IMG/VR virus record: IMGVR_UViG_3300003323_000567
Coordinates: 1 to 64,000 of that record
Length of the DNA: 64,000 bases
Strand: one strand, 5' to 3'
DNA from: a virus
Part shown: positions 8,410 through 63,039 of the stretch, one piece after another
How positions within the stretch are numbered: position 1 is the stretch's first letter
Layout: each line of letters starts with the position of its first letter
Program-made: the position numbers and the translations under genes
The notes under the pieces: model-generated
Database searches by the model: none
What the model saw: the letters and a program-made list of their open reading frames with translations, nothing else
Told to the model about the DNA's origin: nothing

Positions 8410-11400
8410 TGGCATGTGAATACCTATACAAAGGTAAATGGTACACAGAAGATGAACTCAGAGAACTATACTCCCAAAGAGGTGTGACCTCTAGGGAGAT
8501 GGTTTTCCTGAGACATGGAATTACTGATGAAGACAACGAGGGAAAGAATAGCGGACAGAATAATGAGTCTATCAATCAGGAAGGCTACAAGGAAACCAAA
8601 GAATCTCTCGAGAGAGATCTTAAAGGAGAAGGGATAGAGGTGGTTTATACCTCCCCTACGAAAAGAGCCAAACAAACCTCTCAGATCATTAGTAAAGATC
8701 TGAACATTCCTATAATTGAAGTCAAGGGGTTAGAAGCCTGGGACATTGGAAAGTTCTCTAGTCGCCCCGAGGGGGATTTTGATGAGAGATACTATGTAAA
8801 TAACCCTGATGTCAAAGTTCCCGGAGGGGAATCATTTAACCAATTCAAGAACAGGCTGTTAGATGCAATGGACCAAATCCAGCATTCTGCTCAGAAGCCT
8901 GCTATTCTTACTCATTCCAAGTCCCTTAAAGTCATAGAAGCTCTTCAGAAGACAGGAGGAGTATGGAACAAGGAAGCTATAAATGATTATTTTAGCGAGT
9001 CAGATCAACCCAATAATCAGACAAGGAAAATGGATTATCATAGCTCAGATGATCCAACAAGAAGAAGTGTTAATCCTTCCAAGGCTTCTGCAGCTACCAT
9101 GAAACTTATCAAGGAATTTCTTGATAGAATAGGTGTTGAGGTTCAATCACTTGCAAAAATCACGTATAATGGGCAATCCCTTGGGGTTAATGGTTTGGCT
9201 GATCCTCTTAATGGTCTTATTCAGGTTACTCAGGGAAAAGAAGATATAGCTCTTCCAGAAGAAGCTATGCACATGGCTGTGGAGATCCTTGAGCAGAAGA
9301 ACCCTAAGTTATTCAAAGAGATGATGGACAGGGTAGGAAGATATAATCTGACTGATCAAGTATTCCTGGAATATCAGAACAATCCCTTCTATCAGAAAGA
9401 TGGTAAGCCTGACATAAATAAGATCAAAAAAGAAGCCATTGGTAAGATTCTAGCACAAACAGTTATTGATAAGAACCAAGGTGCTCAGGAAAAACCAGAA
9501 CTCTTGAACCAGACAAGGAATTGGTGGCAGAGAATCATTGACTTTCTGAAAGACTTGTTCTTAAGGGCAGGAATGAATCCATTTGAGCAAGTAGCTCAAA
9601 AGGTTATTGAAGGTAAAGATTTTGGAAATGCAAGTGAGTTGACAGGGGCTCCTTTTGCTTCAAGAAACCCAGCTGCCCTCAATGCTACTCTTAAGCTAGT
9701 ATCTTCCCTGAGGGATCCTAGGGCAGAGAAATGGTTTAAAGAGCTGAATAAGGAGATCTTCCTTAAAAAGTTGCAGCAAGATTTACAAGCTCCTAAGGCT
9801 CAAGTAGATATGCTGAAGAAGCTAATTCAGGGAAGAAGCTATGATAACATAGGAGATCTCATTGCTGATGTATTAGCTGAGCTTTCTTATACTGTAGAGA
9901 TAAATACTACATATGATAGACATCATGATGTATATAATGACATGGATGACTATCATATAGATGTGCAGGACGATCCAAACACTCCTCGTCCTGAATTCAC
10001 CTATAGTGTGATAGACAGCAATGGTAAGACAGTATTTAATACCAATGATGAAAAAGAGGCAAAACAAAAAGTTGAAGAATTAAAAAAGCAAGGAGGAACT
10101 CCATCTTCCCACTATTCTAATTTAACAGTCCCAGGAGGGGTAAATTACAGAGAAAATGAGATAAAGACTCCTGATATCACTCCTTCTATAAAAGGTCATG
10201 CTGCTTTTGCTTCAGATAAAGGTATTGGTTGGTTTAGAAGTGACGATAAGAGAACTGATGATAACTCTGGAAAGAGGGTTTCAGACGGAGCTGGAGGTTT
10301 AGTTCAGCTTGGTCAAGTAACTGATAGAAACACAAGACGTATCCTTGAATTACAATCTGATCTATTTCAGAAAGGTAGACAACTGGATCAGCTAGTTTCA
10401 AATCCAGTAAACTTCCCTTTTGAATTTGAAGGGCATACATATACTGAGGAATCAGATGGACACAGTGATACATATTTCAAAGATGGAAAAAGAATATCAG
10501 ATGAAGAAATTCTAGGGGTAAAGACGAGATTCTGGAATTCTCACAGGGAAGATTTCAACAATCAATTCCTCCAGCTTTTAAACAAAGAGAATAACTGGGT
10601 AACCTTCTTTGTAAAAGCTATTGTCCAGGATAGCGCTAAAAAAGGATATAAGAATATCAGATTCCCTGGGGGAGATACTGCTGCAAAAGTAGAAGGGCAC
10701 GAAACTGTAGATGAATTCATAAAACAGAAGGAAGAAGCTATATCCAGGATTGAAGAGCAAATTTCTGACATGCAGAAAGAACTTGAAGACCTGGATGAAG
10801 AAAAGGGCCATGAGGATAGATATGCCTCTTACTATAAGAGAGATGGAAAATACTACCGTGCTGAGCTAGGTGTTGAAAAGGAAATAAGTAGAAGTCAGTA
10901 CACCAGTACATTTGACAACCAAAGGAGATATATTAAAGATATTATCTCAAGTCGGGAAAGAGAGATGAGCCGATTCAAAAAGGAAGTAGAAGATGCAAGG
11001 GAGGGTAGGAGCACTTTTGCAGCGATCTCCAGATTCTATGAAGATACAGTTCAAAACATCCTTAAGAAACAAGGATATTCTCCTAAGGAAGTGATTGATG
11101 AGTATGGAAATAAGTGGTTCGAGATCTCCATAAATGAAAAGAGGGATCTTGGAGACTTCTATTTTCAACTGTCCGGCCCTCAGGATCTTACAGAAAAGAT
11201 CATTCAAAAGAATAATAACATCACAAAAAGAGGTGATGAATTTGAGATTAATGGAAATAAGATAAGAAGGAGTGTTCAGGAACAGATACAGGAATTCTAT
11301 AGGAAGAGAATAGGCGCAGAGAGGGCTGATAAAGCTCTTAGGGGGTTTAAGCAGGAGACGGAAAACAAGGTTCAGATAGATATTAAAGACATTCTTAATA

Positions 11401-49951: not shown

Positions 49952-51958
49952 TTAAAACAGGCTAATTTGGTTAGGATCTGGCTTTCCACCTTTTCTTTTC
50001 CTCCCTTTTTCGATTGCAAATATTCTTTCTTCTGCTTTGTCAATGTAATACTGATAGTTGATACCATAGTTCCCTATGGGAAGACCCTTGTTTACTTTGT
50101 TAATTACCATGCACTTCCATTCTCCCGCCTCACACTGGGTCACATCATTACCATCAGATTCAACATCGGGATTCTTGACCTTCAGGAGCTTTCTGCCTTC
50201 TTTAGAGACATAATAGCGTATCATTCGATCATAGATCTCCTTTCCTCCTTCCTTGTCAATACCTTCATAATGATATTCTCTGGAAGCCTTAACTCCAATG
50301 CAGAAATCAAAGATGTTATCATGGTTTCTGATAGTTTCTTCAACAGGCTTTCCTTCAACAAAGTACTTTTCCAGAGCCAGATTGATTATCCTTCTGCTCT
50401 TGTTCTTTTCCAATAAGAAGCTTGTCAGGAAGTCCCCTTTCTTCTTTATTTCCCCATCTGGCTTTATGGCCAGATAATCATTCACAGTAGCCTGGATAAG
50501 CTTTCTATACTCAGTATATTCCAGCTTCCCCTGCTCAGAATTACCCACCTTTTTCTCCCATGCGTAGCATGTATTATAGTACTTCTCCAGCATAGACTTG
50601 TCAAAGAGACATACTATACCATCAGTATTAGCACTTATGGTTTGTATCCCCTCGATCAGTAAATCCTCAATTAACATCAGGATCTCAAACTGGTTTCCTA
50701 TAGTACAGCTAAACTGTACAAAGGGATCATACTGCCAGGAGTTCTTCTCATTAGTCTTACCAAACCCCCCTCCATTCAGGGCTAATTTGTACATCTCAGA
50801 TAGACCTTTCATCTTCCTCTTCTCTTCTTCCCTTAGGGCCTTCTTGATCATCTGCTTGAAGGCTATTCTCTTCTCAAATCTGTCCTTGTATCCAATCAGC
50901 CATGCTTTGCTCAAATGGGATGGAAACAATCCTCTTTTGATAATAGACCATGGATACTGAGATCCAATGTCTGCATCCATAAGGACTTCATTCCATTTGG
51001 GCTCTACGATCCTGTTCTTTTCACTAGAATGAATGCCGCCCTTAGCAATCAATAGGTTTAACCCATTGATACTGAATGGATATTCTTCCTTTTTTGCTAA
51101 GTTTACCCTGACTTTCTTCATCCTTTCATGGAATTCCTGGAAGGGTTTTGTTCTGAACTTCACATAATCAGGGATACATTCTCCATAGGTAAACCTTTTG
51201 GTAGGCTTCCTATTTTTCTTCAGATCATATAACTGTCTGGTAGTTATACCCACGCTATCACAATATACCTTCTTGTTAATTTCATCCCCGATTTTCACAT
51301 CACTCCATGAGAGGGCTTTGGTAGGAAATTTCATCTCTTCAATTACATCCAGCCTGTCCTGTACCTTGTTTCTCCCCTTGTAATCTTCATGCTCAACTTC
51401 CCCTAGGGTGTATTTCCAGAACTCATAAGTAGCCTCCACATCATTTCTACAATAATCCTTGATCTCCTGGATCTCAGCCTCTGTAAATACCTCTTGAGTG
51501 TGTGCATAAGGCATTTCCTCTACATTGTAGAAATCCATAGAAAACTCCAGCCATTTCAAAGATGTCCTCTTATTCTCATTGTCATAATGATGTATCTTCA
51601 AAAGATCAATCTGTTGATTGTACAGATCCTCTTCCCTATAGGGAGGAAATAGATCATAGTTCTGATCATCAATGATCTTATTAGAGAACTTTTTAATAAT
51701 ATTCAGAATTCTCCTATTGTCATAATCAATCCATCTCTGATGGTTATCCAGAATAAATTGCAAAATTTGAGCATCATAACTTAACCCATTATAGGATATA
51801 GAATATCCCTTATGGGAGTACAGATGCTTAACCAAACCGTAAAGATCATTTCTATACTCAGAAATCTCGAATTCTACCCATTTATTAGTAGTAGGATTAA
51901 ACCCACAATAGAGGAACATTCCTCCAAGTACCTCTATATCATAGACTTCTACATTCAT
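49952..51958 (-). CDS. Family B DNA polymerase with 3'-5' exonuclease
   Basis: YDIE, YNGLSYD, YCRNDV (exonuclease); DIGSQYP, YKLALNGGGFGK, ANTDG (polymerase). Confidence 0.92.
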   Translation of the reverse strand: MNVEVYDIEVLGGMFLYCGFNPTTNKWVEFEISEYRNDLYGLVKHLYSHKGYSISYNGLSYDAQILQFILDNHQRWIDYDNRRILNIIKKFSNKIIDDQNYDLFPPYREEDLYNQQIDLLKIHHYDNENKRTSLKWLEFSMDFYNVEEMPYAHTQEVFTEAEIQEIKDYCRNDVEATYEFWKYTLGEVEHEDYKGRNKVQDRLDVIEEMKFPTKALSWSDVKIGDEINKKVYCDSVGITTRQLYDLKKNRKPTKRFTYGECIPDYVKFRTKPFQEFHERMKKVRVNLAKKEEYPFSINGLNLLIAKGGIHSSEKNRIVEPKWNEVLMDADIGSQYPWSIIKRGLFPSHLSKAWLIGYKDRFEKRIAFKQMIKKALREEEKRKMKGLSEMYKLALNGGGFGKTNEKNSWQYDPFVQFSCTIGNQFEILMLIEDLLIEGIQTISANTDGIVCLFDKSMLEKYYNTCYAWEKKVGNSEQGKLEYTEYRKLIQATVNDYLAIKPDGEIKKKGDFLTSFLLEKNKSRRIINLALEKYFVEGKPVEETIRNHDNIFDFCIGVKASREYHYEGIDKEGGKEIYDRMIRYYVSKEGRKLLKVKNPDVESDGNDVTQCEAGEWKCMVINKVNKGLPIGNYGINYQYYIDKAEERIFAIEKGRKRKGGKPDPNQISLF

Positions 51959-51960
51959 TG

Positions 51961-52018
51961 TTGGGGGAGGAAGAATCGAACTTCCGACAAGAATACTCTA
52001 CCACTGAGCTATCCCCCA
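51961..52018 (-). ncRNA. Anticodon-less mini-tRNA (58 nt)
   Basis: UGGGGGA UA GCUC-AGUGGUA-GAGU AUUCUUGUC GGAAG-UUCGAUU-CUUCC UCCCCCA A. Acceptor, D and T arms are intact; there is no anticodon arm. Confidence 0.75.
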
Positions 52019-52030
52019 CAGGTTAAACTA

Positions 52031-52270
52031 TTAACAATCACCATTGCAAGGCCATTCACATGTGCCACCCATTTCACAATGATGAATCCATCTGCCATTC
52101 TCAAACCAAGGTTGATGTTTCCTATCTCTTTTTCTCTGTAGCCATTTCTCGAATCTTTTTCTCCTCCTTGCCCGCATTCTATCAATCCTTATTTGACCAT
52201 ACATACCTTGTTTGTTCCAGAAGGTAACATAGTCCAGTTTGTACCTTAGGTTTCTGCTTTTCTTTTTCAT
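52031..52270 (-). CDS. Small basic protein with Cys-rich C-terminus
   Basis: 79 aa ending CEMGGTCEWPCNGDC. Confidence 0.5.
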   Translation of the reverse strand: MKKKSRNLRYKLDYVTFWNKQGMYGQIRIDRMRARRRKRFEKWLQRKRDRKHQPWFENGRWIHHCEMGGTCEWPCNGDC

Positions 52271-52450
52271 GTTTGTAACTTTACAACATTAATTTACTAG
52301 TAGAGCTGCTAACTATTTACTTACCTAATGCTTCTATTAAGCACCATACGGATTTGCACCGGGAAATATAAGGGTGTCACTAGCCCTTGAAGGTTTACCT
52401 ACCATAAATAGTATATCGCACACAGAATATTGTCTCTGTGAAACATTTAG

Positions 52451-52521
52451 TGGAGCATAGGGGATTCGAACCCCTGATAACCATCTGAGGAGGGCCGGCA
52501 ACCAACTCCTACATATGCCCC
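52451..52521 (-). ncRNA. Degenerate tRNA-like RNA
   Basis: Acceptor GGGGCAU/AUGCUCC-A and T arm AGGGG-UUCGAAU-CCCCU. The D/anticodon region is replaced by a single AGGAG/CUCCU hairpin. Confidence 0.6.
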
Positions 52522-52528
52522 AACCAGT

Positions 52529-52840
52529 TTATCCATCATATCTCTTGGCAGCTTTTAGCATATCAATATGACATGCTACAGCTTCTAAGAGATCGCTCGA
52601 ATAAACTAAGTTATTAGTTTCTCTGTCCATTAGGACTCTTGTAAGTGATTTTTCATCCTTCCTGAGAATGAAACCAACTATGTTCTTAAGGGAAGTACCT
52701 TGCGAATCTTCCCTATGGGCCCACTCTGTAGTATCCTTGTCAACCCACCACTCAACACCTTCTTCATTTGTGAAAAAGGGTTTTGCATTTTCATCATTCC
52801 AGGGCCATAGTTTAAAGTTGAGTTCTTGTTTTTCTTCCAT
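52529..52840 (-). CDS. Hypothetical protein
   Basis: 103-aa ORF. Confidence 0.55.
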   Translation of the reverse strand: MEEKQELNFKLWPWNDENAKPFFTNEEGVEWWVDKDTTEWAHREDSQGTSLKNIVGFILRKDEKSLTRVLMDRETNNLVYSSDLLEAVACHIDMLKAAKRYDG

Positions 52841-52841
52841 A

Positions 52842-53234
52842 TTACTGTCTTAGTTTGGTACCCGAATACCCAGGCACCTCTTCTACTTCCTTTAGGGGAA
52901 GCCTCCCCACATAGTGCTCTTTGAAACTATCCCTGGAGTAATACAGGATTGGATTTACATAATTAGAAACCGAAATGAAGTTATCCACTTGCTCTGACCA
53001 CCCTTGATCATTTTCATCCATATCCCAGAGGGGATATATTTCAATGTGGGGAAAGATCTTGCGGATCATTTGAGCTCTGTAGTGTACTCCATAGGGATTT
53101 CTCTCATCAATATCATTTCTTGATCCAAGTAAGATAATAGTTTGATCACATTCCCTTAGGGATGTGGCAATTAGGTGTAGATGACCTGGATGAAGAAAGG
53201 GGACTTGAAATCTTCCGATTATAATTCCTGTCAT
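52842..53234 (-). CDS. Cytidylyltransferase-family nucleotidyltransferase (NMNAT/NadM-like)
   Basis: IIGRFQVPFLHPGH (HxGH), RNP and SGTKLR motifs. Confidence 0.8.
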   Translation of the reverse strand: MTGIIIGRFQVPFLHPGHLHLIATSLRECDQTIILLGSRNDIDERNPYGVHYRAQMIRKIFPHIEIYPLWDMDENDQGWSEQVDNFISVSNYVNPILYYSRDSFKEHYVGRLPLKEVEEVPGYSGTKLRQ

Positions 53235-53341
53235 GTTACGGATTTTAGTAAGGTGAAAAGTCATCACCATCATTGATATCCATTCCTAGTATGCAAACAA
53301 CTAGTAAAAGTACACCTATTACTATGATAAAATGTGCCATA

Positions 53342-53764
53342 CTAGAAGTATTTTTCAATGAAGGGAATTACATCTGAGAAGTCCTCCTTTGTAGAAGCAT
53401 CATTAATCTCAGCAAGTGCCGTTCTTTCGCCTGAAAACCTTCCCCCGAAACTGGACAGCCTTTTCTTATCTGCTTCATCAGGATTGAACATTCCGTTGGA
53501 ATAATCTATTCCTGCCCATTTTCTCACACCTATGGGTAATACTCTGGCACTCGTATTTATCTGATCAGTATAACTCATCCCATCAATAGAGTTATCCTCC
53601 CAGTATCCTTCTCCTGTGATCTCTTTGTGAATGTCACATAACACTCCAAGGCAGCAGTGGGCAACCGGCGTTTCTCCTTCCCTAGTAACCAGTCTTCCGG
53701 TTGCTCTCCTGTATTTGCCGCTCTTTAGGGCAGCTATCCATTTTTCCTTAATTTCTGGATTCAT
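53342..53764 (-). CDS. Conserved phage hypothetical protein
   Basis: KWIAALKSGKY...HCCLGVLC...LAEIND. Confidence 0.65.
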   Translation of the reverse strand: MNPEIKEKWIAALKSGKYRRATGRLVTREGETPVAHCCLGVLCDIHKEITGEGYWEDNSIDGMSYTDQINTSARVLPIGVRKWAGIDYSNGMFNPDEADKKRLSSFGGRFSGERTALAEINDASTKEDFSDVIPFIEKYF

Positions 53765-53784
53765 TAGAATTTAATTTAAGAGTT

Positions 53785-54177
53785 TTAGTGAATGTCTTGA
53801 TCAATTTCGAACATTACAATCTGGTACTTGAGCTTCACCAAGGGATAAACCAGATACATATTCTTTTCCCCTATGGTAACATAGTTCCCATTCTTAAGCT
53901 TGTAATGGTGAAAGACTGAATTAGCATCCCCATTCTTTCTGTAGCTTTCTACAGCAAAGGATCCATAACCATCAATCATCACTGACTTTTGGGTAAACGT
54001 TACTTCAAAAGGAACATTATACCTGATCGTGTCAAGAGTGTAGCTCTTTAAGGTGGAGTCTGCCTTAAGATACTTAGTGTAGACAATCTTTGTCTTGTAG
54101 GTAACTCTGCCAAGAAATTGACTAAATCCCATTTGGCTCAGAAATAACAGTAATACCAGGAGTTTTGCTTGCTTCAT
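53785..54177 (-). CDS. Secreted protein
   Basis: Bacteroidota-style signal peptide MKQAKLLVLLLFLSQMGFS-Q. Confidence 0.6.
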   Translation of the reverse strand: MKQAKLLVLLLFLSQMGFSQFLGRVTYKTKIVYTKYLKADSTLKSYTLDTIRYNVPFEVTFTQKSVMIDGYGSFAVESYRKNGDANSVFHHYKLKNGNYVTIGEKNMYLVYPLVKLKYQIVMFEIDQDIH

Positions 54178-54184
54178 ATATTGG

Positions 54185-54442
54185 TTAATTTAGTACTCTT
54201 TTTAGTAAATAATCAAGATTACTGTTGATGTTTTCTATCTCAGTGGGATTTAAGGTTCTTCCCATACCATATCTCCATTTGAATGGATTAGGTTTGGATT
54301 GATGAGAAGTGATATAATGAATGTTGTAATTATAAGTGGAGTACTTTCCTCTGCAGTCCAGCCACTCTGCAGGAGTCATTAGAGACTCTACGTACATAGG
54401 CTTCCCTAAGGTGCTTTGTTGTTCCTGTTTCTGGTCACTCAT
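54185..54442 (-). CDS. Hypothetical protein
   Basis: 85-aa ORF. Confidence 0.5.
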   Translation of the reverse strand: MSDQKQEQQSTLGKPMYVESLMTPAEWLDCRGKYSTYNYNIHYITSHQSKPNPFKWRYGMGRTLNPTEIENINSNLDYLLKRVLN

Positions 54443-54668
54443 TTTTCACTACTTTTTTTGGAAATACAACAATAGTAATGTCTCCTTTCTTGTACCTTTC
54501 TTGAAGCTCCTTAAAGCTCATAGAAGGTATAATCTCAGTGGATCCGAGAGATGTTCCCCAGGTTACCTTTTTGTCTTCCTCTTTTGTAGAAACTGTGGAA
54601 TAACCGTCTGGACAAGAACAATCTGCTCTATTTTCTCCGCAGTTTCCACATGGGTCTGTCCAACTCAT
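54435..54668 (-). CDS. Small Cys-containing protein
   Basis: CGNCGENRADCSC. Confidence 0.5.
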   Translation of the reverse strand: MSWTDPCGNCGENRADCSCPDGYSTVSTKEEDKKVTWGTSLGSTEIIPSMSFKELQERYKKGDITIVVFPKKVVKNE

Positions 54669-54868
54669 AAGATTTCTTTTGTTTGTGATTTAAAATAGCC
54701 CCTTAGGCGCTTAATCCATTTTTTCTTCTCGTATTTTGTGTAAGCTGTTCCCTTAGGGGACATGCTGGTAATGGGGCGTGTGAGATGTGTCAACCAACCT
54801 TTTGCATCCAGGATACCCGACATATTCTCATCTCTGCCAGCCTTATGTCTTCTTCCTTTGTTTCTCAT
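54665..54868 (-). CDS. Small basic protein
   Basis: 67 aa, coupled to its neighbours. Confidence 0.45.
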   Translation of the reverse strand: MRNKGRRHKAGRDENMSGILDAKGWLTHLTRPITSMSPKGTAYTKYEKKKWIKRLRGYFKSQTKEIL

Positions 54869-55296
54869 ATTGCTAAAGTTGGGGTTAAAAGGTGAGAAAA
54901 TTTGTGCTCAAAGACAATATTGTCAGGAATAGGAGCACAAGAGAACATATCTGCCATCTCCTGAGGGGTATAGGCATTAAGATTAGGCTTAATACCATAG
55001 GCTATATAGAAATCCAGCTTAGGGTGAACCTCTGCAAAATAATACAGAGATTTTATCTGAATCTCTATGTAAACTCTTGGGACAGAAGGATGTATCCTTT
55101 GCCTAAGATCTTTCGTGGTTATTGCATAACTCCTCCCTTGGAGGCCTTGGGGGTTACCATACTCTGCATCAAACTCTCTGTAGGCAATTAGGGCTGCTCC
55201 TTTCCCATGTCTGCCTTCAGTATTGGCCCCAAAAACAAATATCCCATTATCTGGGATATCGAACTTGTTGAGAATCAATCCATCATAGATTTTCAT
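54865..55296 (-). CDS. A1S_2505-like phage protein (macro-like fold)
   Basis: IFVFGANTEGRHGKGAA...GLQGRSYAI. Confidence 0.7.
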   Translation of the reverse strand: MKIYDGLILNKFDIPDNGIFVFGANTEGRHGKGAALIAYREFDAEYGNPQGLQGRSYAITTKDLRQRIHPSVPRVYIEIQIKSLYYFAEVHPKLDFYIAYGIKPNLNAYTPQEMADMFSCAPIPDNIVFEHKFSHLLTPTLAI

Positions 55297-55297
55297 A

Positions 55298-55525
55298 TTA
55301 CTGTTTTTTCATGTACATCCAACAATCTCCTGTTGATAAAGTAATTGATGTATTGTCAGTAAAGAGTATCATAATCTCAGTACCATGCATTGATGGTAAA
55401 GCTTGATATATGGTTTTACCTCTTAAGAATCCCATATCTATCTCATCAACAGATTTTCTACCATCAGAGTTTTCACATCCCCAAAGGGAGAAAGAAATAA
55501 GAAATACAATTAATAGTCTTTTCAT
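55298..55525 (-). CDS. Small lipoprotein
   Basis: MKRLLIVFLISFSLWG-C lipobox. Confidence 0.6.
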   Translation of the reverse strand: MKRLLIVFLISFSLWGCENSDGRKSVDEIDMGFLRGKTIYQALPSMHGTEIMILFTDNTSITLSTGDCWMYMKKQ

Positions 55526-55541
55526 ATTAAATAAATTTATG

Positions 55542-55636
55542 TAGCGAGGGAAGGACTCGAACCTCCACGAGCTGTACCCAGAATTTAGCTCTCCACCGAG
55601 TTAGGATAGATGCTTTACCAATTTGCATACCTCGCT
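55542..55636 (-). tRNA. Atypical class II tRNA-like gene with aberrant anticodon loop (CUAACUC)
   Basis: Acceptor AGCGAGG/CCUCGCU, D arm UGC/GCA with UUGGUAAA, 6-bp anticodon stem, long variable arm GAGCU/AGCUC, T arm GGAGG-UUCGAGU-CCUUC. Confidence 0.65.
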
Positions 55637-55650
55637 GTGTGATAGATAAG

Positions 55651-55687
55651 AAAAAAAGAGAGGGGGAATCTATCCTATCCCCCTCCC
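55651..55687 (-). terminator. Intrinsic terminator
   Basis: GGGAGGGGGA-loop-UCCCCCUCUC followed by U7. Confidence 0.75.
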
Positions 55688-55756
55688 GTGTTTTGCTTTA
55701 CACATTAAAAAGTGTGTTGCTCTTTGTGTTTTCAAGTAGCCTCAAGCTAACATTAT

Positions 55757-56224
55757 TCCATTGTTCTGTCAACTGAACTACCCCGCCTTAAATTGCCAGG
55801 GACGGGAGTGGAAACTCAGTTCCCTGGACTTTCTTTCATCGAATGCAAATTATGCAGCCTTCTTTTCGCTTGATACTTTAGAAGACTGACCAGTCAATTC
55901 CCAATACTTATGAGCAGTAATCTTGCTCTTCACGAAAAGGGAGATAGGACTTCCTTTTCTTTCATTCTTCCTCTTGTTCCTGCCGTACTTCTTGTTTCCT
56001 TTACCTCCAGATTTATTTGCCATATGATAGTTTTATTTGATAATGACCCAGTATAGAGGATACCAGGTCTTAAACATGATACGTAAACAAAGTTTATTTT
56101 TTGGTCACTTCAAACCCATGATTTTCAAGGACTTCTTTACAAAGCTGAACGTAAAGAGGGTTTGAAGTACCAAAATTATTCTTCAAACGAGGCGGGGACA
56201 GGATTCAAACCTGCGACTTATGGA
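55757..56224 (-). ncRNA. Circularly permuted tRNA-like RNA with a 403-nt insert (3' half 56191-56224 precedes 5' half 55757-55787)
   Basis: UCCAU AAGUC GCAGG-UUUGAAU-CCUGU CCCCGCC ... GGCGGGG UA GUUC-AGUUGACA-GAAC A AUGGA. Acceptor (7 bp) and anticodon (5 bp) stems are complementary. Confidence 0.75.
55850..56023 (-). CDS. Small basic protein (57 aa) nested inside the permuted tRNA insert
   Basis: MANKSGGKGNKKYGRNKRKNERKGSPISLFVKSKITAHKYWELTGQSSKVSSEKKAA. Confidence 0.6.
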   Translation of the reverse strand: MANKSGGKGNKKYGRNKRKNERKGSPISLFVKSKITAHKYWELTGQSSKVSSEKKAA

Positions 56225-56238
56225 TTTGGTTAACTACC

Positions 56239-56337
56239 TGACACGAGCGAATTTGAACTTTAACCTGAGTCTTTTGACACGAATCTAAGTCTAACTTGTC
56301 TGGGGACTAAATAAACCTAAATCTAAGTCTAAGTCTC
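56239..56337 (-). repeat. Degenerate hexamer repeats (about HAGAYT) with two TCGTGTCA boxes
   Basis: GAGACT TAGACT TAGATT TAGGTT ... TAGACT TAGATT CGTGTCA ... AGACT CAGGTT AAAGTT CAAATT ... TCGTGTCA. Confidence 0.7.
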
Positions 56338-56347
56338 GGTCAAATAT

Positions 56348-56770
56348 TTAAAAGGGCTCAGAGACTTTTCCTATCTCTTCCCATATAGCTTCACCTCTTT
56401 TGGTTTCTATAATGAGGTTTGCTTCCTCAACAGCCTCATCTTGCTGCTCAAGGCTCTGTATGTCCCTTAGGGCAGCTAGGATTCTTTGTTTGGGAGTAGG
56501 TTGCCAATACTCTGGGCAATTTCCATCATTTATGTCTACTACTGACATATGAAGCTTATCCATCATTAAGTCTATAAGCTCTTCCCCTTCATCGGTGAAT
56601 TTGATACGTATCTCACTGCAGGATCCCACACTCACTCCGGGAAAAGAATCTAACTGTGGAATGCAGTGTCCTAATGCACATCTTGTATTGTCCTCGGCTT
56701 GCAAAACACCTACTCCCCATCTTTCCTCAGGAATAGCTTCGAACTTATCTATAAAGTGCTGAACGTTCAT
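56348..56770 (-). CDS. Hypothetical protein
   Basis: 140 aa. RCALGHC...DINDG resembles motifs in 53342-53764. Confidence 0.6.
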   Translation of the reverse strand: MNVQHFIDKFEAIPEERWGVGVLQAEDNTRCALGHCIPQLDSFPGVSVGSCSEIRIKFTDEGEELIDLMMDKLHMSVVDINDGNCPEYWQPTPKQRILAALRDIQSLEQQDEAVEEANLIIETKRGEAIWEEIGKVSEPF

Positions 56771-56780
56771 AGAATTGTTT

Positions 56781-56984
56781 TTATTTTTGTTTATGTGTCC
56801 TTCCAGGGCTCCATGGACAAGCAACTCTCTGTCCAGGATCATCTTTTGTACCCTTTCCACCTACTGTCCACCAGATCTTAAACGGATTCACAGGTTTCAT
56901 TCTGGCATGATAACCGTGCTTATGTGGAGGTTTCCCTCGATTTGTGGCCACTTTGCCACTCTCAGTCTGATGCTCTCTTGCCAT
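56781..56984 (-). CDS. Small basic hypothetical protein
   Basis: 67-aa ORF filling the intergenic gap. Confidence 0.45.
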   Translation of the reverse strand: MAREHQTESGKVATNRGKPPHKHGYHARMKPVNPFKIWWTVGGKGTKDDPGQRVACPWSPGRTHKQK

Positions 56985-56993
56985 AAAAAGGTT

Positions 56994-57782
56994 TTATTCC
57001 ACTCCGTGAAGGTACTCAAAAAATCTCTTAGCGTCAAATTCTGATCTCACTGCAGCTACATCATTAGCTTCTTTTAAAGCACCTTCAATTGCTTTAATAA
57101 GAGCACTTCTCCTAGCCAATACTCCAGCCCTGTAGGTATGAGTAGTTTCTCCTGAGAAGGACTGGAGTGTATAATCCCCAAGGGTGACAACAGTGCTTCG
57201 AACAGATTTGACAGGTGTGTACCTGGAAGTATCTGTCATATTCTTGAGATTTGGATCTTCAAGAATATACTCCTCTTTTTCAATTGTTTTGCTCTCACCT
57301 TTGAGCATAGGAGTCTCATATATGTCCCTCCCTGCATACATTGGGTCTGTGGTAGGATCCCAAATCTCAGCATCACTCCTCACAGGCATCTGAGAATACA
57401 TACTCTCTAGGCCTTCCTTCTCAAGAATTGATCTGAGCTTCATAAGCTCCAGTGAACCAAGCTTTCCAAAGCTGAAATTCTCTACCTTTAGCTCCACTTT
57501 GTTACCAGAAGCATTTGTAGCTTCTATAGCCATCACTTGATCAATATGCTCGGATGCTACTTGCTCGAGGTATTTGAGCTTTTCAGGCACAGTAGTAACT
57601 ACTCTGGTGAACTGGTGCATGGAGGGCTCATCTTTTGTTCCTTCCCTCGGGGCATAGGTCTTTCTGATACCCTTGAATTCACCTTGTTTCTTTTCAAAGA
57701 AATTCTTGTATTCAGCAATAAGCTTCCTGAATACAGGGGTAGACGATTCTACCAAGGCCAGTAATTTATTTAACTTTAACAT
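56994..57782 (-). CDS. Conserved uncharacterised helical protein (DUF7873-like, from memory)
   Basis: MLKLNKLLAL...FKGIRKTYAPREG...IEATNA...ELMKLRS...ALKEAN. Confidence 0.6.
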   Translation of the reverse strand: MLKLNKLLALVESSTPVFRKLIAEYKNFFEKKQGEFKGIRKTYAPREGTKDEPSMHQFTRVVTTVPEKLKYLEQVASEHIDQVMAIEATNASGNKVELKVENFSFGKLGSLELMKLRSILEKEGLESMYSQMPVRSDAEIWDPTTDPMYAGRDIYETPMLKGESKTIEKEEYILEDPNLKNMTDTSRYTPVKSVRSTVVTLGDYTLQSFSGETTHTYRAGVLARRSALIKAIEGALKEANDVAAVRSEFDAKRFFEYLHGVE

Positions 57783-57796
57783 AAATCTAAAAGGTT

Positions 57797-58039
57797 TTAA
57801 TGACTGTGAAATTTAGCAATTACTTCCTGGTATGCTTTAGATGGTGTATATCTATAGAACGTTCCCCTCTTATTAACTTTTACTCTTTTCTTAGCCTCTT
57901 CCATACCTCCTTTGAACAGAAATATGGCTCTCACAAGCTTCTCAGCAGGTGTATACAGCTCCTCAGGGGATCTATATACTCTAGTATCAAAAGGGGGCCT
58001 GTTAGAATAAACCAACCTATACCTTCTTCCTTTTACCAT
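57797..58039 (-). CDS. Hypothetical protein
   Basis: 80-aa ORF. Confidence 0.5.
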   Translation of the reverse strand: MVKGRRYRLVYSNRPPFDTRVYRSPEELYTPAEKLVRAIFLFKGGMEEAKKRVKVNKRGTFYRYTPSKAYQEVIAKFHSH

Positions 58040-59920: not shown

Positions 59921-59949
59921 GTTTAGTGTTTTTAATGTTTAAAAATAAC

Positions 59950-60006
59950 AGATCCCAGTTTTGATTCTAAAGAGTAAGAATTGTTTGTATTTGCTGTATG
60001 GGATCT
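59950..60006 (-). ncRNA. ACAGCAA-array RNA unit 1
   Basis: Stem AGAUCCCA/UGGGAUCU, then U-ACAGCAAA and an internal AUUCU/AGAAU hairpin; followed by GUUA. Confidence 0.8.
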
Positions 60007-60010
60007 TATC

Positions 60011-60068
60011 AGGTCACGACTTTTCCATTACAAGTGGATTGCTTTTAGCTTTTTGCTGTGTGTGACCT
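60011..60068 (-). ncRNA. ACAGCAA-array RNA unit 2 (Thr-UGU anticodon-loop mimic)
   Basis: Stem AGGUCAC/GUGACCU, ACAGCAAA, UCCA-CUUGUAA-UGGA; followed by GAUA. Confidence 0.8.
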
Positions 60069-60072
60069 TATC

Positions 60073-60164
60073 AAGTGCCAATGGAGAATCGAACTCCTTT
60101 AGGTTCCTTCCCACCAGGGCCAGGTCTTTTTTCAGAAGAATTTAATGTTTGCTGTGTGGCACTT
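60073..60164 (-). ncRNA. ACAGCAA-array RNA unit 3 (tRNA-Phe-like, no D arm)
   Basis: Stem AAGUGCCA/UGGCACUU, ACAGCAAA, UCUU-CUGAAAA-AAGA, T arm GGAG-UUCGAUU-CUCC; followed by GAUA. Confidence 0.8.
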
Positions 60165-60168
60165 TATC

Positions 60169-60395
60169 AGGGTTCTCTTTTTTGCTTTTTACGTGTGCTA
60201 CCATTACACCATCTCCAGGTTTGTACCCTTTTGTTTGGGGGCGTCAAGTACCATGGGCCGCCCATGTCCCAGGTATAACTACGGGGAGGGTACTTAACCG
60301 ATTGTCTGGAGAAGGGGATTCGAACCTAAGCAAGTCTGACTTGCCCCTACCACGTCCTCCTGATGGATTTTGCTAATATTTGCTGTAAGAACCCT
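60169..60395 (-). ncRNA. ACAGCAA-array RNA unit 4 (permuted tRNA fold, YrlA-like)
   Basis: Stem AGGGUUCU/AGAACCCU, ACAGCAAA, then T arm, acceptor UCUCCAG/CUGGAGA and D arm GUGU-AAUGGUA-GCAC; followed by GAUA. Confidence 0.8.
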
Positions 60396-60399
60396 TAAC

Positions 60400-60454
60400 G
60401 GGTGACTGTTTTTAACTTATTTGCCAAAAGTTTAATATTTGCTGTAAGTCACCC
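60400..60454 (-). ncRNA. ACAGCAA-array RNA unit 5
   Basis: Stem GGGUGACU/AGUCACCC, ACAGCAAA, AACUU/AAGUU hairpin; followed by GUUA. Confidence 0.8.
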
Positions 60455-60458
60455 TAGC

Positions 60459-60684
60459 AGATGCTGTTTTGTTGCTTTACGCATTCTAGCCATTAAACTA
60501 ACCCCCTGTAATACCTTCCTATTAGCTTTCAGTCCAGTTTGAAGGTAGTCTGTCTTCTTCTCCTGAAATCAGCTTAACCCAGTACAGACACATGAGGTAA
60601 GGAAGATATTGCAGGGGGCGGGGGGATTCGAACACCCCCATCTCGTCCGTGAAAAGGATTGCTAATGTTTGCAGTTCAGCATCT
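60459..60684 (-). ncRNA. ACAGCAA-array RNA unit 6 (permuted tRNA fold, YrlA-like; Glu-UUC loop)
   Basis: Stem AGAUGCUG/CAGCAUCU, ACUGCAAA, UCC-UUUUCAC-GGA, T arm GGGGG-UGUUCGAAU-CCCCC, acceptor CCCCCUG/CAGGGGG, D arm GUUU-AAUGGCUA-GAAU; followed by GCUA. Confidence 0.8.
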
Positions 60685-60688
60685 TAAC

Positions 60689-60838
60689 AGGTAAGTGTTT
60701 CCTATACGGCCTCCAGTACCCCTTAGGGCCTTTGGAACTCCCTTTTTCGCATCAGCCTAATCAAGGGAAATCGTTGTGTCATTTCTGACCTGAACTACCT
60801 TAGGGCCATTATTCGGCTTTAGTTGCTGTTACTTACCT
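60689..60838 (-). ncRNA. ACAGCAA-array RNA unit 7
   Basis: Stem AGGUAAGU/ACUUACCU, ACAGCAAC, multi-hairpin cargo; followed by GUUA. Confidence 0.78.
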
Positions 60839-60842
60839 TAGC

Positions 60843-60895
60843 AGGTGTCAGTATGACTCTAATAAAAATAGAATAGTATTTGCTGTGTGACACCT
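60843..60895 (-). ncRNA. ACAGCAA-array RNA unit 8 (Lys-UUU-like loop)
   Basis: Stem AGGUGUCA/UGACACCU, ACAGCAAA, AUUCUA-UUUUUAU-UAGAGU; followed by GCUA. Confidence 0.8.
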
Positions 60896-60897
60896 TC

Positions 60898-60936
60898 AAA
60901 AAAGAGCAGGGGATCTCAATTTTCACCCCTGCCCTC
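60898..60936 (-). terminator. Terminator-like hairpin between array units 9 and 8
   Basis: GGGCAGGGG-loop-CCCCUGCUC followed by U6. Confidence 0.6.
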
Positions 60937-60984
60937 AAGATCCCTTTAATCGTTCAGTTCTTCCAGAGGCTTTAGAGAGTATAC

Positions 60985-61080
60985 GGGGCACCTTTCGCTT
61001 ATTCTGGATTCCCTTACTAGACACTCAGGATTTGTCATTCTTGATTTTAGACTATAATTATTGTTTGCTGTAGGTGACCC
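60985..61080 (-). ncRNA. ACAGCAA-array RNA unit 9
   Basis: Stem GGGUCACC/GGUGCCCC (one mismatch), U-ACAGCAAA, followed by G. Confidence 0.65.
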
Positions 61081-61081
61081 C

Positions 61082-61228
61082 TTATTTTCCTTCATAATAC
61101 CAGCCTTGTCCAAAGATATTTAAGATGTCTATCAGGGGCATTGCAAGAAGTCTAACGAAGTCTACACGATATCCCTTTGAATCCTTCACGTCTAATCTGT
61201 TTTGGACAATGTAGACGAGATCTGACAT
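61082..61228 (-). CDS. Small hypothetical protein (48 aa)
   Basis: MSDLVYIVQNRLDVKDSKGYRVDFVRLLAMPLIDILNIFGQGWYYEGK, between the TROVE-like gene and the array. Confidence 0.45.
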   Translation of the reverse strand: MSDLVYIVQNRLDVKDSKGYRVDFVRLLAMPLIDILNIFGQGWYYEGK

Positions 61229-61242
61229 GCATGTTATCTCTT

Positions 61243-63039
61243 TCATACTTTAACCAGGTTTAAGATTTCCTGATCCAGAGCTACATCCACAAGCTCTGCT
61301 GCATTTTTGATTCTGGAAGTTAAGAAGGCTACTGTAGAAGCTGAATAGCCACTAAAGTAGTACACGTTTGGAACATCCCCAAATGTCTCGAACTTTGTAC
61401 CGGAATTACCTCTGTAGTACCCATTAGGTATATTCCACAGAGCTATTACAAAATCATTGACATACTCAGGAGTGAACCCAGCATTCCTAAGGGCTAGGCG
61501 AGAAGATTCCACATTTGTTCTACCCAACATGCCAGGATTAAACTCACCATCAGAGATACATAGTATCCCCTTCGGGAAGTGGGTTTCGGGGACTCCTTGG
61601 TTCTTAATCTTGATGAAAAGCTGTATAACACTCTGGAAATCAGTGCTTCCATAATAACTTGCATTATCATTGAACCACTTTTCCACGGGGGTAGATCCTA
61701 CCCATGTATGCATCTTTGCATCAGTATTAAACTCTATCCAGCTATCAGCAAATTCACCCTCTAAGAACTCTGAGAAGTACAGTGCAAGTGCCTTCGCAAT
61801 AGCATTAGAAGACATATTTGTACCAATAGCCTGTGAAGCCATTGAGCCAGAAGTGTCCCTTACAACAATCAATGAGGTGGTATGATCCTCGGATTTGCCT
61901 TTAGCAACGAGGGTCACAAATTGCTTGTTGACAGTTTCCCTTACATGCTCTGGAACCTGGTGCAGTGTCTTATATTTCCCACCATTTCCTTGCCAGAACC
62001 CAAAGTCTTCAAAGAGCTCATGTACATATCCAGTGTACTTTACAGCCTCTGTAGTAGGCTTCTTAACCCATTGTGTGTATTTTTCCTGTAAGCCTTGACG
62101 CTTCAGGAATTTGCTCCTTACAAGGAGTGATAAAGCACGTCCATGAATTTTGCTAAAGTCTATGCGATCCATCTTCTTTTGGGAGATGAGCTTTTGCCAT
62201 TCATGGGCAGTGCCTGAACTTTTTAGCTTCCTGTACTTTTTGTAGCTGCGACCATTTGTGTTATAATACTCCTTATCTGACCCAAACGTGATGGGGCTCT
62301 TACCTTCCATAAAATCCTCCTTAGTTCCAAACAGCAAAGAGCATATCCACTTGGCTACCATGTTGTCAGCTTGTGCTTCCACAGTAGTACATTTTGCATT
62401 TGTCTGGATACTTGGGAGATACTTTTTCACCAATTCACAGGTGTTCTTATCCCCAAGGGCAGATAGTAGGAATTTACCAATTACATCCCAAGGAAGTACT
62501 CTACCATTCCATCCATGATACATCAGGTCAGTTTGGAGCATTGTAATAATGTCCTTCCATGATCCGAGTATCGGAATTATCCAAAGGTTCTCAACAAAAG
62601 CCTGACGATCTTTATGAGACAGCCATAGCAACCTCATTATACCTTCATGCTTAAGCTCAGCACCCCTTTGGGTAATGGAGGTAGTTCTACCTAAAAAGTC
62701 AGTTGGTCTTGTAATTGTACGTATGTAGAAGGCCATTTTAACTGCCTTCAGTGGGTCTTCAGCCCATAAAGCCTCACAGTCCCTTGCTATTTCAGCAAAG
62801 GTTCTGGGTTTCTTATATTCACCCAATTTGCCAAACTGGTCCACAAAGGAATTTCCTGTTGTAGAATATTTAAGGGCATTGTTCCCAGAACGGGTCTCTG
62901 CTGCCTTTTTAAGCCCAGCCTGAACAAAAGCTTGGTTTTTCTGAGCTTCTAAAGTACCATCAAGTACTTTATTAACTCCAGATGTCTTTCTGCTCCCCGA
63001 ACGTGGGGAGAATAATTGAGTCTTTTTGCTGTCAAACAT
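61243..63039 (-). CDS. Ro60/TROVE-like helical + vWA protein (DUF2828-like)
   Basis: N-terminal SGNNALKYSTTGN...VDQF, helical body (GSWKDI, KKYLP, YKKYRK), and C-terminal vWA with VRDTSGSM MIDAS, STDF, ISDGEFN, LWN and SGYS. Confidence 0.8.
   Translation of the reverse strand: MFDSKKTQLFSPRSGSRKTSGVNKVLDGTLEAQKNQAFVQAGLKKAAETRSGNNALKYSTTGNSFVDQFGKLGEYKKPRTFAEIARDCEALWAEDPLKAVKMAFYIRTITRPTDFLGRTTSITQRGAELKHEGIMRLLWLSHKDRQAFVENLWIIPILGSWKDIITMLQTDLMYHGWNGRVLPWDVIGKFLLSALGDKNTCELVKKYLPSIQTNAKCTTVEAQADNMVAKWICSLLFGTKEDFMEGKSPITFGSDKEYYNTNGRSYKKYRKLKSSGTAHEWQKLISQKKMDRIDFSKIHGRALSLLVRSKFLKRQGLQEKYTQWVKKPTTEAVKYTGYVHELFEDFGFWQGNGGKYKTLHQVPEHVRETVNKQFVTLVAKGKSEDHTTSLIVVRDTSGSMASQAIGTNMSSNAIAKALALYFSEFLEGEFADSWIEFNTDAKMHTWVGSTPVEKWFNDNASYYGSTDFQSVIQLFIKIKNQGVPETHFPKGILCISDGEFNPGMLGRTNVESSRLALRNAGFTPEYVNDFVIALWNIPNGYYRGNSGTKFETFGDVPNVYYFSGYSASTVAFLTSRIKNAAELVDVALDQEILNLVKV

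Follow-up and report, generated by a model that had tools for sequence, protein, structure and literature searches.

A permuted tRNA-like element with a small protein gene in its acceptor loop, and the DUF7873-associated RNA to which it belongs

The window considered here is the first 64 kb of the 126,034-base pair (bp) virus record IMGVR_UViG_3300003323_000567, and the subject is a permuted transfer RNA (tRNA)-like element, lying among genes that are all on the minus strand, in which the 3' half of a tRNA body precedes the 5' half and a small protein gene sits between the two. Direct reading bears out the initial annotation in this respect, with the 3' half at 56224-56191, the 5' half at 55787-55757, 403 nucleotides (nt) between them, perfect complementarity in the acceptor stem (7 bp) and in the anticodon stem (5 bp), and no anticodon loop. 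The parts of the element and its insert, compared where indicated with those of two relatives (L002 and L010), are as follows.

56241-56233, minus strand: 5' strand of the outer closing helix, UCAGGUAGU, pairing with 55740-55732
56232-56225, minus strand: 5' side of an internal loop that replaces the anticodon loop, UAACCAAA, 8 nt, variable among relatives
56224-56191, minus strand: tRNA 3' half, from sequence, minimum free energy (MFE) fold and covariation; anticodon-stem 3' strand UCCAU (56224-56220), variable region AAGUC (56219-56215), T arm GCAGG-UUUGAAU-CCUGU (56214-56198) and acceptor 3' strand CCCCGCC (56197-56191)
56190-56189, minus strand: U73-C74, immediately 3' of the acceptor 3' strand, a family signature, UC in the window, L002 and L010
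56188-56024, minus strand: variable part of the insert 5' of the gene, ~165 nt in the window, 17 nt in L002 and ~75 nt in L010
56023-55850, minus strand: ORF57, the open reading frame (ORF) of a Lys/Arg-rich protein of 57 amino acids (aa) ending KKAA, from homologues, codon pattern and AlphaFold
55827-55796, minus strand: hairpin CCAGGGA...UCCCUGG without a U tract, 7/7 pairs kept and 4 with double-sided change
55787-55757, minus strand: tRNA 5' half, from sequence, MFE fold and covariation; acceptor 5' strand GGCGGGG (55787-55781), U8-A9, D arm GUUC-AGUUGACA-GAAC (55778-55763), A26 and anticodon-stem 5' strand AUGGA (55761-55757)
55756-55741, minus strand: 3' side of the internal loop, 16 nt with a conserved UUAGCUU(R)AG motif, 13/16 positions invariant in the three sequences
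55740-55732, minus strand: 3' strand of the outer closing helix, GCUACUUGA, pairing with 56241-56233

The element is a complete class-I tRNA body with its 3' half first and without an anticodon loop. In the usual tRNA numbering, and going by the list of class-I core contacts in which the elbow pair is normally G19-C56, the contacts U8-A14, G15-C48, G18-U55, U54-A58 and G53-C61 can all be formed as read from the sequence, and A19-U56 takes the place of G19-C56. Two tRNA genes of the phage beyond the window, tRNA-Arg(tct) and tRNA-Gly(tcc) at genome positions 83257-83329 and 83912-83983, have UUUGAUU T loops and hence U56 like the mimic. The likeness to initiator tRNA first suggested for the acceptor and T sequences turned out to be weak, tRNA-Met(cat) being indeed the best of the phage's own 24 ARAGORN genes, at an alignment score of 15 for 72 nt; the pattern of D arm plus anticodon stem gave 70 matches, 67 of them canonical phage tRNA-Arg(TCT) genes. 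The permuted element is reported by neither ARAGORN nor Rfam. A scanner for permuted cloverleaves, set to stems of 5 bp (T), 7 bp (acceptor), 4 bp (D) and 5 bp (anticodon) in permuted order, finds a single perfect site in the 126-kb genome, as against 0.02 matches per dinucleotide-shuffled 64 kb (2/100 shuffles with a match). The native 511 nt fold with an MFE of -139.6 kcal/mol (z -3.36). All five helices are present in that structure, namely the outer helix, the anticodon stem, the T arm, the long-range acceptor stem and the D arm; 21 base pairs (7 + 5 + 9) join the halves and enclose 256-403 nt in the window and its relatives.

No match was found by blastn of the region against 50,697 phage records nor by an exact 21-nt search of viral contigs, and the same strings with 3 mismatches allowed gave none in L002, because L002 has diverged further than that. 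L002 was found through its DNA polymerase (79% protein identity), and the nested protein as query led to L010 and to metagenome copies of L002 and L010. The permuted element is retained in the two relatives, its spacer being 256 and 313 nt long there as against 403 nt in the window. On the three-way alignment of window, L002 and L010 the 47 pairs of the element are 99.3% paired across the three sequences and 13/47 show double-sided changes, a value that 0/500 shuffles reach; sliding the partners by 1-3 columns leaves 41-57% paired. The acceptor stem, which closes across the spacer, accounts for double-sided changes at 4/7 of its pairs and the T stem for 2 more, and the outer helix has 9/9 pairs kept in the three sequences, 3 by one-sided changes. 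Of the two flank pairings initially proposed to extend the anticodon helix, UCAGGUAGU/GCUACUUGA is thereby retained in both relatives, and AGUUAAC/GUUAGCU has to be given up, being broken in L002 (2/7 pairs). The two halves are on this evidence one co-evolving structure, and the view of the locus as a large tRNA-mimic RNA gains support from the full permuted cloverleaf in the MFE fold together with compensatory changes in two relatives. That the halves are independent decayed fragments lacking compensation is contradicted, because the acceptor pairs have changed on both sides yet stay paired. The 5' side of the internal loop varies, and at 56229 a soil contig has A where the window has C.

The nested ORF57 has 18 homologues of 50-59 aa which share a conserved core, PISLFV..KI.A..YW, and by a hand count some 20/22 of the base differences listed between it and soil contigs of relatives are at third codon positions. 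The third-position bias and the conserved homologues indicate that ORF57 is a real, conserved gene, as had been supposed; the KKAA ending is present in the window and is not itself conserved, an AA end being found in 13/19 family members. AlphaFold predicts three helices (predicted local distance difference test score 75). ORF57 has no match in Pfam, PHROGs, the ESM Atlas (best score 0.82, within the chance range) or the PDB by Foldseek (E 9.5), and no homologue in 185,579 species genomes. Between the acceptor 3' strand and the start of ORF57 the sequence is so variable that soil contigs of relatives omit 163-169 or 114 nt of it; it holds a TAATTTTG match at 56178-56171 in the window, such matches being no more frequent than expected by chance. 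Downstream, the hairpin at 55827-55796 ends 8 nt before G1 in the window and 7-8 nt before it in the relatives, the spacer CAAUUYAA being kept in the three sequences, and it is probably a 3' protector of the ORF57 message.

In more distant phages the ORF57 homologue stands alone. The scanner finds no credible permuted tRNA in the nine distant ORF57 loci, DUF7873, the family of a protein encoded upstream of the element in the window, is present in 0/9 of them, and ORF57 homologues are present in 0/75 other DUF7873 loci. Several of the distant genes have, on our own reading, a GC-rich hairpin and a T run 3' of the gene, and ordinary tRNA genes lie near the homologue in three of the nine. A short hairpin with an A-rich loop of the AACAAA type occurs about 10-15 nt before the start of distant ORF57 genes (L011, L012, L018 and L022), and may be a shared translational control element. 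Because ORF57 is absent from the 75 other DUF7873 loci and present without the tRNA mimic in distant phages, it can be taken as captured in the window's clade, a clade-specific insertion into the acceptor loop of the permuted domain. A conserved ORF57 and a covarying hairpin within the acceptor loop are what is special to this clade.

The permuted element does not stand by itself, and its neighbours on either side need to be described.

57782-56994, minus strand: gene of a DUF7873 protein of 262 aa (Pfam PF25283, E 3.3e-31), on the same strand as the RNA and upstream of it
56984-56781 and 56769-56348, minus strand: two small ORFs, of 67 aa and ~140 aa, between DUF7873 and the RNA, in the window's clade only
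56337-56242, minus strand: leader of hexamer repeats in phase, with UUAG recurring at 6-nt intervals (56332/56326/56320 and 56294/56288), and with direct repeats UUAGACUUAGAUU (x2) and UCGUGUCA (x2)
55687-55651, minus strand: 10-bp hairpin with UAGGAUAGAU loop and then a U run, a terminator by pattern, 3 pairs with double-sided change
55636-55542, minus strand: second tRNA-like domain, in normal order, with a covarying non-canonical 'anticodon' hairpin

The DUF7873 protein has 159 homologues, PF25283 being found in 120/120 among the matches listed; it has no relative of solved structure, and 'DUF7873' is named in no paper of the literature searched. An alignment of 16 DUF7873 proteins led to 7 Bacteroidota genome loci and 68 viral loci outside the window's clade, two Lak records included, and in 60/75 of these loci the scanner finds a permuted tRNA-like module 60-520 nt 3' of the gene. 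The acceptor loops of the 60 modules are of 16-245 nt and mostly of 16-30 nt, as against 403 nt and a gene in the window. The second nucleotide 3' of the acceptor is C in 60/60 modules (45 UC, 14 GC, 1 AC), and among them (L103-L172) N73-C74 is often followed by N-A, which gives a near-CCA tail within the loop. Acceptor loops of 114-131 nt occur in sixteen loci (the L109-L129 group and others), and one of 245 nt without a convincing ORF at 3492-3736 of L156; the acceptor loop of the family takes up non-coding inserts too. A closing helix of at least 7 bp is found in 23/32 distinct modules, its sequence differing by clade, and L139, L156 and a Cytophagales genome (L103) carry a near-identical UUAGCUU(R)AG-type motif 3' of the module.

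The flanking parts are shared as well. Leader and 3' half together align by blastn (E 2e-11) to 3284-3435 of one locus (L168), right 3' of the DUF7873 stop, and to 6 further loci of the 75, and the stretch that begins with the 5' half and takes in the whole second tRNA-like domain matches 25/75, the insert matching 0/75. Found in the same order are NNNUUA-type hexamers, GUGUCRAAAG, a UUAGCUUAAG loop, the closing helix, a hairpin with an AGGAUA-type loop and a normal-order tRNA-like domain with UAUGCAAAUUGGUAAAGCA. Hairpins with AGGA.AUUGA-type loops occupy the position of 55687-55651 in four loci (L103, L107, L159 and L160), and UAUGCAAAUUGGUAAAGCA, the D arm of the second tRNA-like domain, recurs in L159. 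ARAGORN calls this second domain Val(aac) in the window, Leu(tag) in L002 and Gln(ttg) in L010. It follows from this common order that the 'terminator' (55687-55651) and the odd 'tRNA' (55636-55542) both belong to the RNA family, the hairpin being a terminator by pattern in the window and a conserved internal hairpin in other members. The leader was also tried as a folded domain and this was dropped, 0/31 pairs predicted by RNAalifold being changed on both sides; because these pairs show no covariation the leader is read as a repeat track, probably protein-binding. Taken together, the sequence comparisons show the permuted element to be domain 1 of a larger RNA which accompanies DUF7873 genes in phages and Bacteroidota, a placement that the initial annotation had not made. 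Of the two clade-specific ORFs, the 140-aa product (56769-56348) has a C-terminal block, ILAALRDIQ, in common with L010, and a 170-aa reading of 56860-56348, which contains it, has no family match and no relatives in viral contigs. In the Prevotella phages Lak-B5 and Lak-C1 (L097, L098) the DUF7873 protein has 44% identity; a terminator and antisense coding sequence come after its gene, and neither Rfam nor the scanner gives a match downstream.

The reading preferred here, at a probability of about 0.6, is that the window holds the permuted domain 1 of a DUF7873-associated RNA in whose acceptor loop a gene cassette has been captured and from which that loop is putatively cut out. The transcript would run from the hexamer track through the outer helix, the anticodon-stem 3' strand, T arm and acceptor 3' strand to U-C, then through the acceptor loop to the acceptor 5' strand, D arm and anticodon-stem 5' strand, the UUAGCUU loop, the outer helix again, the hairpin and the second tRNA-like domain. 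The captured cassette would consist of the gene for the small basic protein and a hairpin which has no U tract, and therefore transcription could continue into the 5' half. Because the 7-bp acceptor stem, the T arm, the elbow and the U73-C74 tail are all kept, the host RNase P is predicted to cut 5' of G1 (55787) and a 3' tRNA-processing nuclease after U73 (56190). These cuts would free an ORF57 message with a hairpin-protected new 3' end, and the two remaining pieces would stay together as a tRNA mimic through the 14 further pairs of anticodon stem and outer helix, the DUF7873 protein being the presumed partner of the RNA. The cutting is predicted by analogy with the YrlA of M. smegmatis, for which a two-piece product is reported. 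With excision the acceptor loop would be a safe place for a gene, and the finding of a whole gene there suggests that the loop is freely lengthenable and probably cut out. Taken alone, the cutting step by RNase P and the 3' nuclease, which the initial annotation had proposed and which stays plausible, is put at somewhat short of even odds. More tentative again is the wider proposal that the permuted fold may act as a built-in excision cassette, in which RNase P and the 3' nuclease would free a translatable message and define both its ends, the pieces would stay paired, perhaps as a CCA-tailed mimic for the DUF7873 protein, and the loop would be a general landing pad for phage genes, intron-like and with no need for splicing machinery.

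Several points weigh against this reading. The gene-bearing form is present in only three distinct sequences, and the covariation is one of few events. The scanner is self-written and crude, some of its long-loop matches being false, and by it 15/75 of the DUF7873 loci, including two Lak megaphage records, are without a module. In the window the RNA lies ~640 nt from DUF7873, as against some 100-250 nt elsewhere and 60-520 nt over the whole set of 60 modules. A-1 can pair with U73 to make an 8-bp acceptor helix, as it does in the MFE structure, and this may slow RNase P. Finally, the TAnnTTTG match at 56178-56171 could start a separate ORF57 message, although TAnnTTTG matches are not above chance and L002 is without that stretch.

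What is at stake is more than one locus. Known YrlA-type tRNA mimics are small and non-coding, whereas the window has a protein gene inside a tRNA-shaped RNA whose halves co-evolve across up to 403 nt, in a cassette that is short at ~0.8 kb. It amounts to a natural experiment on whether the acceptor loop is cut out in DUF7873-linked and YrlA-type RNAs, the working RNA being then in two pieces. If the loop is excised, one fold would make both ends of a message, a way of expressing genes that would be new for bacteria and phages and would explain why genes collect in such loops and in the spacers of transfer-messenger RNA (tmRNA).

The main rival is the same RNA with the same insertion and an acceptor loop that is never cut. 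The base-paired halves would then clamp the ends of the message together, ORF57 would be translated from the loop of a stable, protein-bound RNA, and the clamp would stabilise or gate the message. Uncut counterparts do exist, PMC4201824 giving S. Typhimurium YrlA and D. radiodurans Yrn1 as uncut at the analogous site. The possible A-1:U73 pair with its 8-bp helix points the same way, and so does the tolerance of non-coding loops of up to 245 nt by other family members. Set against these are the 7-bp acceptor stem, the intact elbow and the N73-C74 found in 60/60 modules, which are what pre-tRNA processing enzymes read, and a covarying hairpin 8 nt before G1 whose purpose is evident only if an end is generated at that point. 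An uncut loop is accordingly doubtful, though it is clearly the best placed of the alternatives.

Much further down is the possibility that the element is one more Y RNA of the phage's Ro60/TROVE-like protein (61243-63039), comparable to units 4 and 6 of the Y-like RNA array near that gene and tethering that protein. The order of T arm, acceptor and D arm is the permuted one of YrlA, and to this extent the initial comparison with YrlA and the array holds; a Ro60-like gene also lies ~5 kb upstream in the window, and the L010 genome has it too, at 74% identity. The particulars do not support the comparison further: over 50000-58000 Rfam gives nothing for YrlA up to E 10, where the 403-nt insert would hinder a match, and the array motif ACAGCAA and YrlA's GNCGAAN0-1G are both absent from the minus strand over 56345-55540. 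In the L002 contig, which is only 27% complete, the element is present, the syntenic slot is occupied by other genes, and tblastn finds no match to the Ro60-like protein. The family moreover follows DUF7873, in loci where no Ro60 gene was looked for, and the 598-aa Ro60-like protein itself shows in Pfam only DUF7788 and, below cut-off, DUF2828. Because the motifs are absent and L002 keeps the element with no Ro60-like gene in the slot, a Ro60 partnership is unlikely, and the Y RNA reading as a whole has little going for it. As to the slot, the Ro60-like gene and the Y-like RNA array (59946-63039) are replaced in the L002 phage (L095, G001:C1:26000-33985) by ~2.1 kb of other small genes, one of them UPF0114, and synteny is kept on both sides of it in the L002 contig.

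A true circularly permuted tRNA gene, as in Cyanidioschyzon merolae, would have its flanks trimmed and joined into an anticodon loop (N-U from the 3' flank and CCA-A-A from the 5' flank) and the resulting circle opened by RNase P and RNase Z. The gene order and a spacer at the acceptor end fit this, and the nucleotides beside the anticodon stem would give N-U-NNN-A-A in all three relatives, with triplets CCA, CUA and UUA; but a soil relative has ACA, and so the triplet simply varies. No bulge-helix-bulge (BHB) can be drawn at the junction by our own reading, and no RtcB or Rnl2-type ligase is encoded, the search for Rnl1 being uninformative as its control failed. The phage also has its own tRNA-Trp, the family closes the stem by a helix and not a loop (the 23/32 modules above), and the known permuted tRNA genes covered by the accessible portions of PMC3978253 are algal or archaeal with spacers of 1-74 bp, all of which makes this reading very improbable. 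Scarcely credible is the last one, of two decaying tRNA gene fragments that flank a gene by chance, such as a tandem tRNA-gene-tRNA could leave and as the ORF57 homologues within tRNA clusters in L019 and L022 might recall, given 4/7 acceptor pairs changed on both sides and still paired across 256-403 nt, an expectation of 0.02 per shuffled window, intact core tRNA contacts and the same domain with a short loop in 60/75 DUF7873 loci. As a separate matter, tmRNA was considered as a candidate identity and rejected, there being no ARAGORN tmRNA, no Rfam match, no conserved frame downstream and no G3-U70.

Two other tRNA-like elements lie in the window on the minus strand. One of 58 nt at 52018-51961 has acceptor, D and T arms, the anticodon arm being replaced by only 4 nt (46.3 bits with Rfam tRNA), and ends 2 nt before the start of the DNA polymerase gene. 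Its L002 copy (9729-9786) is 214 nt from the polymerase start, and a general 'tRNA punctuation' built on this element was for that reason not used. The other, 74 nt at 52448-52521, matches only the tRNA-like ends of the tmRNA model, at 31.3 bits and so under the gathering score of 47, and begins ~7 nt after the stop of the ORF at 52529-52840.

As far as searched, the DUF7873-linked double tRNA-mimic RNA is not in print, and a protein gene inside the acceptor loop of a tRNA mimic is not described in the available portions of PMC4201824, PMC3978253 and PMC7824862. Within its own family the window RNA agrees with the other DUF7873-linked RNAs in the order of parts, the motifs, the U/G73-C74 tail, the closing helix and a same-strand upstream DUF7873 gene, and the clade differs from them in its loop of 256-403 nt with a gene, as against 16-245 nt without one, and in the two ORFs that come after DUF7873. 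The nearest known system is YrlA (Rfam RF02553), which like the window RNA has a T arm, a loop-closed acceptor stem and a D arm, with the RNA ends on the anticodon side. For the YrlA of M. smegmatis, whose acceptor stem is likewise of 7 bp, cleavage by RNase P RNA has been reported in vitro, and cleavage into two pieces with addition of CCA in vivo (Chen et al. 2014, PMC4201824). Unlike YrlA, the window RNA has no Rfam match, no GNCGAAN0-1G and seemingly no dependence on a Ro60 gene, and it follows DUF7873 and possesses a hexamer-repeat leader, a second tRNA-like domain and a protein gene in the acceptor loop.

Soma 2014 (PMC3978253) describes spacers of 1-74 bp for the permuted tRNA genes of Cyanidioschyzon merolae, green algae and Thermofilum pendens, which give real tRNAs via a BHB-dependent circular intermediate. 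The window element has in common with them a 3' half upstream of the 5' half, and differs in having no anticodon loop or BHB, a presumably bacterial host and a protein-coding spacer of 256-403 nt. The two-piece tmRNAs of Alphaproteobacteria and some phages also come from a permuted gene, from which an acceptor-end segment is cut out to leave two base-paired pieces. This is close to the case proposed here as to the permuted gene and its intervening acceptor-end segment, and the window element is unlike it in having C3-G70 or G3-C70, a full D arm with 4-bp stem and no tag frame after the 5' strand. Lastly, in the t-elements of plant mitochondria and in MALAT1-mascRNA a tRNA-shaped fold lies beside a message, RNase P and RNase Z define the ends, and an upstream structure protects the 3' end. 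Those folds are in the normal order and mark one end, whereas the permuted fold of the window would mark both.

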